Shown: positions 9,222 through 14,890 of the stretch, piece by piece
Layout: each line of letters starts with the position of its first letter
Position numbering within the stretch: position 1 is the first letter of the stretch
IMG/VR virus record: IMGVR_UViG_3300030104_004354
Origin: an uncultured virus (IMG/VR IMGVR_UViG_3300030104_004354)
Taxonomy: Duplodnaviria; Heunggongvirae; Uroviricota; Caudoviricetes
Strand: one strand, 5' to 3'
DNA: 64,000 nt
Program-made: the position numbers and the translations under genes
The notes under the pieces: generated by a model
Databases searched by the model: none
The model's input: the letters and a program-made list of their open reading frames with translations, nothing else
Told to the model about the DNA's origin: nothing

Positions 9222-10715
9222 ATGCTACTTTCGATGCTATTAGCTCTCGCCCCACAAGGACCTGTTGGTGTAAATTTAGAAACAGTCACAGACTGGCACC
9301 GTCAAACTCCCTTTGTAGACGCCTTTAAAAGTTCTCGCGAGTGGGTGAGCCATCAAGCTAGCCCCTTCTCATGGGGTGGTGGGCCTGCGATCAACACAGA
9401 CGATCTTGGATGGCCTCAGAGCCTTGAGCCTAATCAGTGGATTGAATCTATCATCTTTTCTGATGGATCTCCTAATTACCCCGACGGTATTTATAACATT
9501 CGTTACGATGGTGTCGGAACTCTGAAGCCCTTAGCAGGCGGCAACGGATCTGTTACAATTGTAGAGCAGAATCCAGGTCACATTAAAATTAATTTACAGG
9601 TTCCGAGCGATGGGTATTTTACTCTTAGGATTACAGACATCGTGCAGCCCATTGAAAACATTCGAGTATATCTTCCTGGGTATGACAACTCCAACAGGAT
9701 CTTTCACCCTGATTTTATGAAGAGCTTAGAGCCTTTCGATACCATCAGGTTTATGAACTGGGGTAGGACAAACGATAATCCTGTGATTCACTGGTATGAT
9801 GCCACTAACTTTTTTAATTATACTCAGGCTACGTCGGAAGGAGTTCACCCTCTCTACATGATCGACCTTTGCAATAAAACAAAGAAGCACATGTGGATCT
9901 GTGTGCCTCACATGGCTAACGACTTATATGTTCAGTATCTTGCACTTCTGTGTCGCATAGCCTTAGATCCATCACTTACAATTTATTTGGAATACAGCAA
10001 CGAAGTTTGGAATGGCATCTTTGATCAGTGTCAGCATGCTCAAAACGAGGGAACAGCGTTAGGACTACACCCTCAACCTTGGCATGCCGGGTGGCGTTAT
10101 TACTCTCAAAGATCAGTTGAAGTGTTTAACTTATTCTCTAACATATACAGTCCCTTAAATCAAAGAAGACTTGTTCGCACCTTGGCAGGTCAGAGTGTTA
10201 ATCCTTGGATTAATAGACAAATCATGGACTGGCAGAACGCCTACGAAAATGCAGATGCTTTTGCAGTGGCTCCTTACTTTGGTGGAGCATTAGGTAACCC
10301 TAGTAATTATCCGCAGGCTTCTACGTTCTCTGTCTCTCACATTCTATCGCTGTGCCAGTTAGACCTTGATGACAACCACAATGTGTACACTAGACAAAAT
10401 AGAATTGATACCACACAAAGAGGCTTACAGCTATTAGCTTACGAAGGTGGTCAACACTTAGTGGGAGTAGGATCCGCACAAAACAATCAGGCTCTTACAA
10501 ACTTATTTGTGCAAGCTAACAGAGACGCGGGTATGCGTCAGTTATACTACAATGATTTAGATCGTTGGTTTGGCGAGGGCGGAGATCTGTTTATGCTTTA
10601 CAGAGCAACAGGTAATTATGGTAGGTATGGATCATTTGGATTGTTTGAGTGGCAAACACAACCTAGAGCCACAGCACCTAAATGGATGGGTGTGATGGAC
10701 TATCTTGGTCGTTAG
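9222..10715 (+). CDS. Putative secreted glycoside hydrolase / carbohydrate-active TIM-barrel protein (clan GH-A-like)
   Basis: Hydrophobic N-terminus, IRFMNW, WICVPH, YLEYSNEVWN (candidate acid/base) and LAYEGGQH (candidate nucleophile). Confidence 0.65.
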   Translation: MLLSMLLALAPQGPVGVNLETVTDWHRQTPFVDAFKSSREWVSHQASPFSWGGGPAINTDDLGWPQSLEPNQWIESIIFSDGSPNYPDGIYNIRYDGVGTLKPLAGGNGSVTIVEQNPGHIKINLQVPSDGYFTLRITDIVQPIENIRVYLPGYDNSNRIFHPDFMKSLEPFDTIRFMNWGRTNDNPVIHWYDATNFFNYTQATSEGVHPLYMIDLCNKTKKHMWICVPHMANDLYVQYLALLCRIALDPSLTIYLEYSNEVWNGIFDQCQHAQNEGTALGLHPQPWHAGWRYYSQRSVEVFNLFSNIYSPLNQRRLVRTLAGQSVNPWINRQIMDWQNAYENADAFAVAPYFGGALGNPSNYPQASTFSVSHILSLCQLDLDDNHNVYTRQNRIDTTQRGLQLLAYEGGQHLVGVGSAQNNQALTNLFVQANRDAGMRQLYYNDLDRWFGEGGDLFMLYRATGNYGRYGSFGLFEWQTQPRATAPKWMGVMDYLGR

Positions 10716-11776
10716 AGTTTATATTCCACACCATTACCAAAACTAGAACCGACTTCGACATCCACACCTAGGGGAACTTTCAAATGGATGTTGAAATTGT
10801 CTTTCAGGTAATGATAATTCTCAAGCTCGTCACTAACAATCTCAACGACCTTTCTAGTTTCTCCCTTGGGAGCTATGAGTTCAATTGAGTCGTGAACAGT
10901 GGCTACAACCTTAGCCTTCATACCTTTGAGCTTTTCAATCACACCAAGCATACCACACAGTAGAATGTCACTAGCGGCGGATTGGATTGTAAAGTTTAGA
11001 CCTTGTCGGAACGCTTCCCTACGCACACCCTTGAAAGGTGATCGAACATTAGGTAGGTGACGATAGCGACCAAAGATGGTCTTAGCGTATCCAAACTGTT
11101 TAATGTATTCATCAATAGTATTCATGTAGCGGCCCACACCTGGGAAAGCAGCTAGCCAACTATTGATGATCTCCTCAGCGCGGTCCTCAGGAATGTTACG
11201 CTTTGAGGCAAGAGTATATGCAGTCCCACCATACACTGTTAAGAAGCTAACTTCCTTTGCGATCTGTCGTTCAAGTTTGCTCACGTCCTGGGGATCCTTG
11301 TTGAACGTCAATCCCGCAGAGTAGCTGTGCAGGTCAACGCCAGACTTGAAAGCATGAATCATATTTTCCTCATTAGCGACGTGAGCAAGAACTCGTAGCT
11401 CCATAGCTTTCATGTCAATCGTGATAAAGTCGTGACCCTCTGGAGCTACCACGTAATCACGAATGTTTACATCTAGCGATTCACGGGGCAAAGTGTGAAA
11501 GGACACACCAATCTTATCAGTCTTCTTCCTACCGACATTCGCACCGGAGTTGGAGATTCGACCAGTAACAGTGCCGTCGATATTATATTTCACATACATT
11601 CTACTGTTGCCAGTATTCTGTAGTGCAGTACGAGCACCTTCAATATACACAGAGTGTAGCTTGGTCAGTTTCTTATACTCTGAAAAGCGATCGAAGAACT
11701 TCTTAGCAGCCTTCAACTGGTCGTCAGACATGTTATTCAGGATCGCCTTGGCGATGCTCACTTCTTCGTTATTCAA
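10712..11776 (-). CDS. polA: DNA polymerase family A, palm/fingers subunit (part 3 of split PolA)
   Basis: GTVTGRIS, motif A IDMKAMELRVLAH, motif B RQIAKEVSFLTVYG, NFTIQSAASD, motif C VHDS. Confidence 0.93.
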   Translation of the reverse strand: MNNEEVSIAKAILNNMSDDQLKAAKKFFDRFSEYKKLTKLHSVYIEGARTALQNTGNSRMYVKYNIDGTVTGRISNSGANVGRKKTDKIGVSFHTLPRESLDVNIRDYVVAPEGHDFITIDMKAMELRVLAHVANEENMIHAFKSGVDLHSYSAGLTFNKDPQDVSKLERQIAKEVSFLTVYGGTAYTLASKRNIPEDRAEEIINSWLAAFPGVGRYMNTIDEYIKQFGYAKTIFGRYRHLPNVRSPFKGVRREAFRQGLNFTIQSAASDILLCGMLGVIEKLKGMKAKVVATVHDSIELIAPKGETRKVVEIVSDELENYHYLKDNFNIHLKVPLGVDVEVGSSFGNGVEYKL

Positions 11777-12293
11777 CCTTCAAGCCTCTTGCTGTGAACT
11801 CTTCTTCGACCATGGCCTTCACCTTGGTTAACGTTTCTTCGTTGGTAGAAGGAGCACCCTTCTTAGTGAACTCGAAAGGATACAATCCAAGACCAAAGTC
11901 GTCAACCTGAATCCATTCGCCTTCATCATTCTTCTCGAATGAGTAAATAATCTTTACAAGTTGATTAGTGGAATTCAGATTGGCATCCTCCTCCAAACCA
12001 GCAGCTTCCCGCAAGGCGATGTCTGCCAGTTTAAGTTTGTCTTGAAGTTGCTGGTCTAATTCGTTCAGCTTATCCTCATCAATCAGCAAACCCTCAAACT
12101 CCATGTCACGGAAGGCAACTGTCAAGGGTGCGATCAACTTTTCATACAGGTGCTCCAGCTTCTTCTGACGAACCTCTTCGAGTAGTTTCACATACACCTT
12201 TGCGGTGGCGTAGGTATCCTTTGCGTTACCCTCAACGCATTGAATTAGTGAGATGTTTTTCCAATCAAACTTCTTACCTTCAACTGTGAGCAT
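11769..12293 (-). CDS. polA: DNA polymerase family A, ExoIII/thumb subunit (part 2 of split PolA)
   Basis: NAKDTYAT (ExoIII-like), MEFEGLLID, NLNSTNQL, TKKGAPSTNEETL. Confidence 0.88.
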   Translation of the reverse strand: MLTVEGKKFDWKNISLIQCVEGNAKDTYATAKVYVKLLEEVRQKKLEHLYEKLIAPLTVAFRDMEFEGLLIDEDKLNELDQQLQDKLKLADIALREAAGLEEDANLNSTNQLVKIIYSFEKNDEGEWIQVDDFGLGLYPFEFTKKGAPSTNEETLTKVKAMVEEEFTARGLKVE

Positions 12294-13327
12294 TAGAACT
12301 TTTCTTCTGGGAAGTAGTAGTAAACAAGATCAGCCAGCGACTTCGGAACATCCTCTTTGTATAGGTGCTGAAGTAGTTTAGTATCGTACACATTATATAC
12401 TTCCTCAACCCCATATCGTTTAAGGAACTTAAGATCGAAGCCTGCGTTCTGCAAGATCTTTCTATTGTTTTTGTTTGCCATCGCCGCGCAGATAAATTTC
12501 ATAAATGCGCCTTTAACTTTATACCCTAGCTTTGCCTCCTTGTGATCAATAGGCAACACTAAAGTTTTACCAAGCTCACCCGTATCTCTGTCAACAAGTG
12601 TCATCGATACAGTGTGAATTGTGTCATCCAGGAAATTCAATCCCGTGGTCTCAATATCAACAGCCAGATCCAGATGAGTATCAGTAAACTCACCTCTAAC
12701 CTCATCTAGCTCCCCGATGCTCATAGCTAAGATGTGATCTACCTGAGCGTCTGTGGCCTTACCTAAAAGCTCATTATTAAGAGCGTTCTCCAGGTCGGTT
12801 CTGAAGAGATAAGCGTTCTTGGGCTCTGCTACGACCTGGAACGGGTGAATAATAGGCACAACCTGAAACTTTGTACCAGACTCAGTAACTAGAGTATCAA
12901 CCTTGCCACGAATCTTACTTTCCTCTCTAGCTTTACCATAAAGTAGAGTCGTCGCAACTTTGCCACAAGCGAACACAAGTCTGGGTCTGTAGTGATCCAC
13001 AGTATCATGAAGGTGTGTCTTACATGATTTCTTAATACCAGTGCTTAAGTTTTCAGAAGTTATGTTAGGACATTTGACCGCAGTTGTGTAGCCAACCTCC
13101 CATTCTTGTGAGAATCTGGCTAACTCTCTCTGGATAATGTTATATTCCTGAGGTCTAAAAGCGGTGAACTCACCCTCAAACATCTTAGCCGAATCTGAGA
13201 TGAACAGTATGTCTACAGGAGACTGCTTATACTCATAATCTAGAATTGTATGAGTTGGCAGATTCATCCTCAGCGCGGGACAACTCTGACACTTGGAGTT
13301 GATACCCTGAAAACTTAGTTGCGGCAT
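12293..13327 (-). CDS. polA: Uracil-DNA glycosylase (family 4)-like domain fused to 3'-5' exonuclease (part 1 of split PolA)
   Basis: CQSCP, AVKCP, SCKTHL and IIHPF (UDG4-like). ExoI VDIETTGL, ExoII QNAGFDLKFL, YDTKL. Confidence 0.85.
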   Translation of the reverse strand: MPQLSFQGINSKCQSCPALRMNLPTHTILDYEYKQSPVDILFISDSAKMFEGEFTAFRPQEYNIIQRELARFSQEWEVGYTTAVKCPNITSENLSTGIKKSCKTHLHDTVDHYRPRLVFACGKVATTLLYGKAREESKIRGKVDTLVTESGTKFQVVPIIHPFQVVAEPKNAYLFRTDLENALNNELLGKATDAQVDHILAMSIGELDEVRGEFTDTHLDLAVDIETTGLNFLDDTIHTVSMTLVDRDTGELGKTLVLPIDHKEAKLGYKVKGAFMKFICAAMANKNNRKILQNAGFDLKFLKRYGVEEVYNVYDTKLLQHLYKEDVPKSLADLVYYYFPEEKF

Positions 13328-13331
13328 GGGA

Positions 13332-13340
13332 CTATGATAG
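13332..13340. promoter_or_regulatory. CTATGATAG palindrome: bidirectional -10 element in a 17-bp spacer between polA part 1 and the late sigma gene
   Basis: Exactly 6 nt separate the hexamer from the start codon on both strands. Confidence 0.7.
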
Positions 13341-13344
13341 GGTA

Positions 13345-13698
13345 GTGAGTTATTATATCGACAATAAAAAGTTTGAGAGATTGATTCAAGAATTCAAACT
13401 TGGCAACAGAGAAGTTGAAAACGAACTCTTTGAAATGTTCGACACCTTGATTAGCCGACTCATGTTATCTTTTAAGTTCAATGTTGATTATGAGGAGGCA
13501 AAGCAAGAATGCTTCTTACTTATACTAAAAGTTCTTAAGAACTTCAATAGAGAATCTGGTCAAGCGTTCAATTACTTTACTACAGTAATTTTAAATAATC
13601 TACGCTTATTGTACTCTAAAAATAAGAAGTACAATGAAAAGCTTGAATCCTATCGGAACCACAGAATGGGCATTCCGAAGAATCCAAGCTCGATCTAG
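13345..13698 (+). CDS. gp55: Late-transcription sigma factor (T4 gp55-like)
   Basis: YYIDNKKF...EAKQECFLLILKVLKNFNRESGQAFNYFTTVILN matches the gp55 pattern (YVNNKEF...NFDPEKSxNPFAYFTQI). Confidence 0.8.
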   Translation: MSYYIDNKKFERLIQEFKLGNREVENELFEMFDTLISRLMLSFKFNVDYEEAKQECFLLILKVLKNFNRESGQAFNYFTTVILNNLRLLYSKNKKYNEKLESYRNHRMGIPKNPSSI

Positions 13699-14066
13699 AC
13701 ACCGATCTCAGCGCCCACGGATCCGTTATAGGATACCACGCGGGGGAATGACTTGTGGATCACAACCAGCATAGGTAGCTGGTCATATCTTGAAAGACAT
13801 GATGTAGAGATAGTTTCCCTATGAGATTTGATTGAAGTCTTAATAACTTCAAGGGCGTTAGGCACATTAAAGATATCTACAACATGAAGTTCAGTGCTAC
13901 CATCAACTGGTAAGTTATCGTTAAAATACCTACACACCTTGTCCCAAGTATTTGTTATCAAATAATAAGAGTTTTGCTTACCCTCAACATTTGATTTAAC
14001 GATAGACTCTAAGTGCTTAGAGTTGTAGATCTTGTGAGTTTTAAAACTATTCTTCTGTTTGCTCAT
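13695..14066 (-). CDS. Hypothetical protein, possible degenerate thioredoxin fold
   Basis: YYLITNTWDKVC resembles F-x-x-x-W-C-x-x-C, and QLPMLVV resembles the cis-Pro strand. Confidence 0.45.
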   Translation of the reverse strand: MSKQKNSFKTHKIYNSKHLESIVKSNVEGKQNSYYLITNTWDKVCRYFNDNLPVDGSTELHVVDIFNVPNALEVIKTSIKSHRETISTSCLSRYDQLPMLVVIHKSFPRVVSYNGSVGAEIGV

Positions 14067-14340
14067 TTTCTTGAGTATCTTCCTTGGAATCTTCTTCAGC
14101 CTGAGCCGCCTTATGTGCTTGAACCATAGCCGTAATTTGCTCGGTCATTGCATTGCAACCAGCAAAGAAGATCTGCTTGTAAAAGTTTTCATCTTCTAGT
14201 TCTGGCGGCTTCAACTTGCAAAAGTTCTTGAAGCCTTCGGCCTCTTCTTTGGAAAATTTAATCTGAATCTTCATACGTCCTCTACTGCGTTCAACTAATT
14301 TAAACTTCGTATCCTCTAACGATAGTGATACTTTATTCAT
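14047..14340 (-). CDS. Hypothetical protein
   Basis: Start placed at MNKVSL (14340), 6 nt after TATAAT. The longer ORF-track start overlaps the divergent gene. Confidence 0.65.
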   Translation of the reverse strand: MNKVSLSLEDTKFKLVERSRGRMKIQIKFSKEEAEGFKNFCKLKPPELEDENFYKQIFFAGCNAMTEQITAMVQAHKAAQAEEDSKEDTQENEQTEE

Positions 14341-14344
14341 ACAG

Positions 14345-14353
14345 CTATTATAG
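14345..14353. promoter_or_regulatory. CTATTATAG palindrome: bidirectional -10 element between divergent genes
   Basis: TATAAT lies 6 nt before ATG 14340 (minus). On the plus strand it is followed by AGAGG and ATG 14369. Confidence 0.65.
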
Positions 14354-14368
14354 TCTAGAGGTTTTGAA

Positions 14369-14890
14369 ATGAAAGATGATTTTGATGTGTCGCCATTAAG
14401 AAAAAAGAAAAAAGTAAACTCAAGAGCTAAGGGTAATAGATTTGAGAATAAAATTGCTAAGACGCTCAACGATAGATTCGACACAAAAGAATTCTGTCGC
14501 ACGCCAGGGTCTGGGGCTTTTGCGACAACTCACAAATTGCCTGAATACTTAAAAGTATATGGAGACTTAATTACGCCAGAAAAGTTCAAGTTCATTATTG
14601 AATGTAAGAAAGGATATGATAATGAACAAGTAAGTGATTTATTAAATCCTAAATCAACAATTTCAAAAATGATAGCTCAAGCTCATCGAGATTCTAAAAA
14701 ATCTTCGAGAAAGTTTTTACTATTTATCGGTCAGAATCGTAAGGAACCCATGGCTATAACCAATGAGTTGGATCTCCCAGTAAAGGGTCCAAGCTTTGCA
14801 GGTTCATCTGGGGATGTTCAGGTTGCGATGTTTAGACTTTGTGATTTAGTCTGTATTGATGATTCTTACTTTTTCTTTGATGATGCCTAA
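14369..14890 (+). CDS. Holliday junction resolvase-like PD-(D/E)XK nuclease
   Basis: NSRAKGNRFE, RTPGSGA, GDL, IECKKG. Confidence 0.8.
   Translation: MKDDFDVSPLRKKKKVNSRAKGNRFENKIAKTLNDRFDTKEFCRTPGSGAFATTHKLPEYLKVYGDLITPEKFKFIIECKKGYDNEQVSDLLNPKSTISKMIAQAHRDSKKSSRKFLLFIGQNRKEPMAITNELDLPVKGPSFAGSSGDVQVAMFRLCDLVCIDDSYFFFDDA

Follow-up and report, generated by a model that had tools for sequence, protein, structure and literature searches.

Three adjacent genes for a family-A DNA polymerase, divided inside the exonuclease fold and at the thumb tip, in uncultured marine phages

Family-A DNA polymerases are the textbook single-chain polymerases. In a window of 64,000 nucleotides from an uncultured virus (IMG/VR record IMGVR_UViG_3300030104_004354, Caudoviricetes; "window" denotes the whole stretch of DNA that was analysed), a polymerase of this family is encoded on the minus strand by three consecutive genes, designated A, B and C. 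A fission of such a polymerase has been described in T7-like cyanophages (S-SBP1/S-TIP37 type, "clade B"): PolA is split into adjacent overlapping genes with neither intein nor intron, the pieces are thought to reassemble non-covalently, and frameshifting was dismissed by comparison of relatives (Czernecki et al. 2023, PMC10201439). The same split serves as a clade marker of T7-like cyanophages in PMC12695635. Here too fission has led to adjacent overlapping genes lacking intein and intron. The cyanophage enzyme is, however, in two pieces divided at the exo|pol domain boundary, each active site residing on one chain, whereas the present cut runs inside the exonuclease fold; unlike in the cyanophages, there is further a second cut at the thumb tip, a uracil-DNA glycosylase (UDG)-like domain, a myovirus as carrier, and pieces that are sometimes kilobases apart. 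With its junctions at about Klenow residues 475 and 618–624 and its three genes, the locus does not belong to the cyanophage-type exo|pol split. It is considered highly probable that the replicative family-A polymerase of this phage consists of three polypeptides assembling non-covalently into the equivalent of a one-chain UDG-exonuclease-polymerase enzyme.

One-chain UDG-PolAs are described for N4-like (cluster 17) and SPO1-like phages (PMC10201439) and for SP15-like phages (phiLo, YerA41), with solved structures, 9qhs being that of phiLo (PMC13697223). The present proteins share with them the domain order UDG-like, 3'-5' exonuclease, polymerase, and the best structural match of A is the phiLo enzyme. 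The UDG catalytic motif is not kept here, as in N4-like enzymes; it is kept in SPO1-like and SP15-like groups as those sources describe them. The one-chain enzymes differ in being single chains of 800–1300 amino acids (aa) at ~21–33% identity; the split clade has Gly for the ExoIII Tyr. Outside family A, Petrov, Karam and co-workers reportedly found a split family-B polymerase (gp43A/gp43B) in some T4-related Aeromonas phages, which is said to form a non-covalent complex and to be tied to an inserted mobile element. That polymerase is of another family and in two pieces; the present one is of family A, and no homing-endonuclease family occurs among the 13 families of open reading frames (ORFs) inserted between A and B. 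In the marine OM43 phages MEP401 and MEP402 a family-A polymerase is annotated in two genes that are separated by a small unknown ORF, where the authors suspect an intron (PMC10580990); these phages are described there as related to podoviruses of Zobellviridae, another lineage, and no GenBank phage record was more than ~34% identical to C. The search of the open literature, with subscription journals and supplements outside its scope, turned up no PolA divided within the exonuclease fold, no PolA made from three genes and no account of this myovirus clade. Split phage polymerases are thus known; what is notable here is the composite proofreading site, the three-piece form, the recurrent thumb-tip cut and the large uncultured marine clade.

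Gene A (13327..12293, minus strand; 344 aa, ATG start) comprises a UDG-like domain (~residues 40–190) and the N-terminal part of a DnaQ-like 3'-5' exonuclease fold (five strands); gene B (12293..11769, minus strand; 174 aa, ATG start) comprises the last exonuclease helix with the ExoIII Asp, then the outgoing half of the thumb; gene C (11776..10712, minus strand; 354 aa, TTG start) comprises the thumb helix that returns, then the palm and fingers carrying motifs A, B and C. Junction 1 (12295–12291, minus strand) is a TAATG, of which base 12293 is common to the A stop and the B start. Junction 2 (11776–11769, minus strand) is an 8-nt overlap, in which the TTG of C (11776–11774) precedes the TAA stop of B (11771–11769). 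A Shine-Dalgarno-like AGAGG (11789–11785, minus strand), 8 nt upstream of this TTG, also encodes R169-G170 of B; it is kept in 37/38 close three-gene loci, L033 reading AGAGGG across the site. R169 is conserved to at least 90% in a tail that is otherwise variable, and this conservation (the AGA of AGAGG) would fit a constraint on the RNA. Rfam gave no match in 10400–13700 at E up to 1, no terminator-like site was found in the same interval, no intein/Hint domain of Pfam was matched in A, B or C, and no intervening sequence lies at either junction; the locus is accordingly not an intein- or intron-interrupted gene. The original prediction of three consecutive colinear ORFs (344, 174 and 354 aa), with a TAATG overlap cutting the proofreading domain, an 8-nt overlap with TTG behind AGAGG cutting the thumb, and no intron or intein at the junctions, was borne out in all these points by the ORF list, Pfam, PHROG_17 and Rfam.

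Domain assignment: gene A was matched by the Pfam families UDG (PF03167, residues 64–180, E 3.6e-7) and DNA_pol_A_exo1 (residues 220–339, profile 22–128 of 173, E 2.8e-11); the latter match ends at profile position 128, and hence the final quarter of the exonuclease profile is missing from A. Gene B gave a weak match to DNA_pol_A (profile 2–70, E 0.0013) below the curated cut-off, and gene C a strong one (PF00476, profile 58–380 of 381, E 2.2e-71). PHROG_17 "DNA polymerase" is matched in order by A, B and C at 547–785, 794–920 and 929–1237. C carries the palm and fingers motifs of a family-A polymerase; the single polypeptide running from exonuclease through thumb and palm to fingers is replaced by three ORFs in different frames.

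Catalytic residues: in A, ExoI D224/E226 (D-I-E-T-T-G-L) and ExoII D298 (F-D-L-K-F-L) are invariant in 30/30 aligned sequences; in B, M1, L2, D10, G22, N23 and D26 are invariant in 33/33. The ExoIII stretch of B reads G-N-A-K-D, and the profile alignment places D26 (codon 12218–12216, minus strand) on Klenow D501 and G22 on Klenow Y497, the ExoIII residues of that enzyme. Compared with a DEDDy exonuclease (PF01612), the D-x-E of ExoI and the Asp of ExoII are present and the ExoIII Y-x3-D on the same chain is absent. In C, D121 (motif A), R170 and K174 (motif B) and H295-D296-S297 (motif C) are invariant in 38/38 sequences; motif B of the window also holds F178 and Y182. The N-terminal domain of A was matched by profile to the family-4 UDG of S. 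tokodaii (4zbx, E 3.7e-14), and the His of the HP motif is kept (I-H-P-F). A family-4 UDG fold thus precedes the exonuclease as in UDG-PolAs; the GEAPG-type catalytic motif is missing. Four cysteines of A (C13, C16, C86 and C102; codons within window 13022–13291), which fit the family-4 UDG iron-sulfur pattern, occur in the three-piece clade of the window alone; the two-piece clade has lost the C-x-x-C region by deletion. The UDG-like domain seems, by these alignments, to be decaying in part of the family.

Position of the cuts in the fold: the profile of 33 B sequences was aligned to Klenow polymerase with positions 9–159 on residues 483–617 (E 2.4e-12; Klenow numbering is chain index + 323), and that of 38 C sequences, from profile position 33, with residues 625–917 (C profile against Bst and Klenow polymerases; E 2.7e-77, given for Bst Pol I). 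Junction 1 is thereby placed at about Klenow 475, in the loop ahead of the last helix of the exonuclease fold and between ExoII and ExoIII; junction 2 is placed at about Klenow 618–624, in the loop between the thumb-tip helices and the returning helix. The AlphaFold2 (AF2) model of A (mean predicted local distance difference test score, pLDDT, 83) shows the UDG-like alpha/beta domain and all five exonuclease strands, lacks the last helix, and is of lower confidence in the final 25 residues. Foldseek with this model gave the phiLo UDG-PolA (9qhs_A, E 1.7e-9) as the top match, followed by family-4 UDGs and PolA exonuclease domains. The AF2 model of B (mean pLDDT 81) consists of a 15-residue coil, a long helix (16–43) with D26, and more helices; Foldseek with B alone gave nothing at E <= 0.001, the weak top rows being all PolA large fragments. 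Complex prediction of A+B+C (with alignments, B as partner) gave 0.90, 0.90 and 0.90, and a control with C replaced still gave 0.76, the kept chain carrying the score; such a score for a split gene could also reflect likeness to solved polymerases, and it was not used as evidence.

Conservation of the split: viral contigs were scanned first with C, which yielded 39 loci (72–100% identical), and then with a B+C alignment, which yielded 80 more, in total 119 loci on 118 contigs (L092 shares a contig with L018); all stop-to-stop ORFs of the 119 loci were scored with A, B and C. Three matches in different frames were obtained for 38/39 close loci; the other, L012, is cut off upstream. Over the whole set the arrangement is A|BC in 66 loci, A|B|C in 45, BC only in five and C only in three, the last eight lying at truncated ends. 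Fusion of A to the following piece was seen in 0/111 loci holding both, so the cut at junction 1 is common to the whole clade. The comparison of break points among relatives that had been proposed thus shows junction 1 in 111/111 loci, and no close relative with a continuous gene was found. On these counts the arrangement is far beyond chance.

Junction 1 is TAATG in 45 of the 111 loci, TAGTG in one (L027, GTG start), TAAnATG or TAGnATG in six (e.g. TAAtATG in L033), TAAnnATG in one (L035, TAActATG) and a 7-nt overlap in one; in the other 57, A and B are separated by 175–3732 bp occupied by other genes. Where the genes are apart, A still has its C-terminal ..E-x-F or ..V-Y and B its MLTV start. 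The 45 three-piece loci start C with TTG (20), GTG (11) or ATG (14) while the place of the codon at junction 2 is held; B and C overlap there by 8 nt in 34 of them, and in the others they overlap by 4, 11 or 14 nt or stand 2 nt apart. When 1.84 billion representative proteins were searched with C, the matches at 39–60% identity were mostly ~350–390 aa long and aligned from their first residues. Nine matches are B+C fusions (480–563 aa; C aligned from ~150–190; 36–46% identical to C), of which eight start with MLTV/MLTI and one with VLTV, like B; below ~170 bits mostly ordinary polymerases of 600–1000 aa were met. Stand-alone homologues of B number 71 (97–183 aa, most of them 172–183 aa). The search for longer proteins embedding A or B gave none, which is weak evidence; the one-chain relatives came from the C-search matches.

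The space between A and B+C in two-piece relatives is a hot spot of cargo genes (e.g. L055:2762-3847, L045:1252-1989, L074:2934-4007, L080:3550-4035). It is occupied by glutamine synthetase in 27 loci, an ORF of 60–70 aa in 15, ThyX in five, saccharopine dehydrogenase in five and a PD-(D/E)XK nuclease in three, and further by a GT2 glycosyltransferase and a DUF3310 protein; that a marine myovirus carries a glutamine synthetase may merit separate attention. The ORF of 60–70 aa is conserved and lies directly upstream of B+C in 15 two-piece loci, overlapping its start (L066:3829-4017, L072:3805-4017, L105:3825-4007 and 12 more); no Pfam match to it and no homologue in the window were found, and it could be an accessory subunit. 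A homing endonuclease was considered as the cause of the split and rejected: no GIY-YIG, HNH or LAGLIDADG domain was found in the 13 inserted ORF families, one of which is the PD-(D/E)XK nuclease.

One-chain relatives and history of the cuts: A, B and C are colinear on Bacillus phage JL gp163 (944 aa; A 4–323 on 12–343, B 24–97 on 399–470, C 16–351 on 552–892) and on Agrobacterium phage JP1_062 (954 aa). Environmental one-chain proteins of 802–912 aa (P0219, 835 aa; P0216, P0122, P0159, P0161, P0119) match the A, B and C profiles in the same order. In P0219 a loop of ~20 residues stands at the break point, so the fission removed little. For the C region a quick tree was calculated by maximum likelihood (IQ-TREE, LG+G4, Shimodaira-Hasegawa-like approximate likelihood ratio test, SH-aLRT) from 88 rows: 34 three-piece, 52 two-piece and the outgroups JL and JP1. 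Identical sequences had been merged (110 to 86), and L032, L035, L036, L038, L047, L081 and L088 (C or BC truncated, unreadable or N-containing) were left out together with three C-only loci. The three-piece state needs two changes on this tree: one three-piece clade of 32 rows holds the window with L047, L089 and L091 (support 85), and a second three-piece pair, L107 + L116, is nested in a two-piece clade (branches 98–99). All three-piece breaks map, in a rough alignment, to the same thumb-tip region. The thumb-tip fission appears from this tree to have arisen at least twice, or to have been undone by re-fusion; the junction 1 cut is old and common to the large clade, only junction 2 being specific to sub-clades.

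The reality of three separate genes was weighed against recoding, artefact and rejoining of the pieces. Recoding, put forward alongside the original prediction, would join the frames by a -1 shift at junction 1 and a +1 shift at junction 2 into one ~870-aa chain and make the three ORFs an illusion of annotation. The frames do overlap at both junctions in the window, and the frame of B is open for 36 nt before its ATG; but no X XXY YYZ heptamer precedes the A stop, that stretch varies synonymously among relatives, a stop 1–3 codons before the C start closes the C frame in most close loci, and a valid start codon is always kept at both junctions. The frames of A/B/C are moreover not fixed (1/2/3 in L033, 2/1/3 in L035, 3/2/3 in most loci), and whole genes stand between A and B in 57/111 loci; the locus is thus no programmed frameshift, and recoding was ruled out, its residual probability being very small. 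Stops arising from errors of sequencing or assembly, or a pseudogene in pieces, are still harder to credit: indels can occur in metagenomic assemblies, yet the same structure recurs in 38/39 close loci and in 111 loci overall from many samples, the catalytic residues are invariant, and no other polymerase was found in related, nearly complete records. The check for indels at the junctions that had been called for was made on contigs of four marine runs (three studies); they show no inserted or missing letters, and junction 2 is bridged in all four. Pairwise ratios of nonsynonymous to synonymous substitution rates (dN/dS) against close relatives are 0.027–0.047 for A, 0.008–0.031 for B and 0.014–0.023 for C at dS 0.5–2.3 (five of seven close relatives with usable dS; dS was saturated for all three genes of L026 and for A of L006), and all three genes are under strong purifying selection. 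Rejoining by split inteins or trans-splicing introns, for which the inteins and group I introns often carried by phage polymerase genes (the SPO1-type, for example) would speak, is equally hard to credit: there is no spare sequence, A aligning to the exonuclease fold almost to its end and B starting within the fold; the tails at junction 2 have only ~15 and 25 residues; and Rfam and Pfam were silent, as given above. The lack of A-B fusions in 111 loci and the unrelated genes between A and B in 57 of them exclude frameshifting, splicing and assembly error together.

A further reading accepts three genes and denies one stable enzyme: B+C would be an exonuclease-free polymerase, and A a free-standing UDG-like protein or nuclease with a separate role, such as repair or protection from uracil or modified DNA. 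For it speak the distance of up to 3.7 kb between A and B+C in many relatives, the non-canonical UDG motif and ExoIII position, and the differential regulation raised for the exo|pol split by Czernecki et al. 2023 (PMC10201439). Against it, A is without its own last helix and fourth carboxylate, both of which are invariant at the N-terminus of B (33/33) and of BC (9/9); A was found in all 111 loci with enough upstream sequence; and the C-terminus of A and the MLTV opening of B stay conserved even when the two genes are unlinked. PolAs moreover need the exonuclease domain for stability according to Czernecki et al. (PMC10201439). The reading as separate proteins was accordingly held to be improbable. 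The heterotrimeric PolA with an exonuclease site completed in trans, as originally predicted, stands in its three real genes, in D26 on B and in the conserved cut; the physical assembly is what we infer.

The mechanism proposed for the three-polypeptide enzyme is as follows. A, B and C, head to tail with no terminator-like site between them, are probably co-transcribed; translation of B would be started by termination-reinitiation at UAAUG as that of A ends, and C would be initiated at UUG (GUG or AUG in relatives) behind AGAGG while overlapping the end of B by 8 nt. A would contribute the UDG-like domain and the five-stranded exonuclease core with three of the four metal-binding carboxylates; the N-terminus of B, its conserved MLTV segment and long helix, would complete the exonuclease fold of A and supply the fourth carboxylate, D26. 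The later helices of B would pair with the first helix of C to give a thumb composite of B and C, and the returning thumb helix, the palm and the fingers would come from C, in which the polymerase active site lies complete. B is thus pictured as a strap tying the proofreading module to the polymerase module, with an exonuclease site built jointly from A and B. A single gene fission in an ancestor of a large marine phage clade is proposed to have made the cut in the exonuclease fold, and the cut at the thumb tip probably followed later and more than once.

Several points weigh against this enzyme. The binding of the three proteins and the enzyme activity are predictions from the genes. The ExoIII Tyr position is an invariant Gly in 33/33 B and 9/9 BC sequences; the two one-chain relatives examined, P0219 and P0216, read Y-N-x-x-D there and the split clade G-N-A-x-D; the tyrosine was lost in the split clade, and proofreading could be weakened or altered by the change to Gly. 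The ExoIII assigned to B in the original prediction is therefore present in its Asp and not in its canonical Tyr. Motif C reads H-D-S and not H-D-E, Ser replacing the second acidic residue; of the motifs expected to be intact, A, B and the H-D of C are kept. Where 4zbx has its GEAPG motif, the aligned stretch of the window is SDSAK, so the role of the UDG-like domain is putative. TTG is a weak start codon for C, and the AGAGG before it encodes a conserved Arg-Gly, so a ribosome-binding role cannot be told apart from coding. Identity in C to the closest one-chain relatives is only ~33–35%, too low for the fission itself to be reconstructed. In the listed contig pieces, no bridge with at least 31 letters on both sides spans junction 1, because contigs of three runs (X1, X5, X6) end or begin at 12289–12322; this was given no weight either way. 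The contig ends in this interval suggest that strain variants branch here in the assembly graphs, and do not look like an indel.

Whether the splits are of use to the phage was also considered. That they are functional and not neutral scars, with fidelity or UDG-like activity tuned through the supply of A, and with the thumb-tip termini as a docking site for clamp-like or host proteins in a modular replicase, is thought unlikely. On this reading, with a proofreading site that exists only when A meets B, fidelity or the UDG-like activity could be set by how much A is supplied; in many relatives metabolic genes unlink A from B+C. The thumb tip, where the break would leave free termini, is where T7 polymerase docks its processivity factor. 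If true, the enzyme would be a counterpart, among PolAs, of the multi-subunit replicases, its proofreading and processivity parts being exchangeable.

The phage and its surroundings: the stretch, whole or in part, is present in 20 listed runs of 11 studies, 19 labelled marine metagenome and one aquatic; four of these runs may be where the DNA of the window came from. PHROG matches of the window to virion genes comprise tail sheath, tail tube, baseplate wedge and hub proteins, major head protein and prohead protease; those to replication and other genes comprise DnaB-like helicase, DnaG-type primase, ribonucleotide reductase, SbcCD-like nuclease subunits and thymidylate synthase. Over ~72–75% of its length, the head protein has ~33% identity to T4-like cyanophage counterparts. 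The designation as a T4-like phage thus applies to the virion module (capsid, baseplate and sheath) and not to the replication set, which is DnaB, DnaG and PolA; judged from these matches, the virion is distantly T4-like and the replication genes are not. A search with PF00136 for a family-B polymerase gave nothing in three related viral records, one of 91 kb (77% complete), one of 53 kb (47%) and one of 102 kb (93%). Against GenBank phages, blastn of the window DNA gave no match, and tblastn gave at best ~34% identity to C and ~29% to A, with no cultured relative among them.

Neighbouring ORFs: an ORF of 497 aa (window 9222-10715, plus strand) converges on the polymerase genes and shares 4 nt with the end of gene C; it is without PHROG or Pfam match. 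An ORF of 117 aa (13345-13698, plus strand), without family match, is divergent from gene A and stands only 17 nt from the A start; the signals of both genes must fit in this short gap. Two ORFs on opposite strands, 14047-14502 (minus) and 14369-14890 (plus), overlap by 134 nt; the plus-strand ORF has a RusA-like resolvase match, and the minus-strand ORF, without match, may be spurious or shorter than listed. Very large ORFs without PHROG match (948, 905, 1163, 1343, 872 and 929 aa) surround the baseplate genes at 28983-52247 (minus strand); these are presumably tail fibre or baseplate proteins of unknown type. Pfam on 12 neighbouring unassigned ORFs of the window gave DUF6321 as the sole match. 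Promoter-like sites were counted at 11 against 6.5 +/- 3.0 expected, which is not meaningful.

The sole published PolA fission noted, that of T7-like cyanophages, separates whole domains; here the catalytic carboxylates lie on two proteins. The locus offers natural, evolution-tested split sites of PolA for engineering (split polymerases, conditional proofreading) and a test case for the assembly of composite active sites. It is also a warning for annotation and for polA-based virus surveys, in which such genes are labelled "DNA polymerase I" as fragments or left unnamed. The missing ExoIII Tyr poses a specific and testable question on the proofreading chemistry of the clade. A large, globally distributed group of uncultured marine myoviruses keeps its polymerase cut inside the proofreading fold, and sub-clades of it have cut the polymerase again at the thumb tip.

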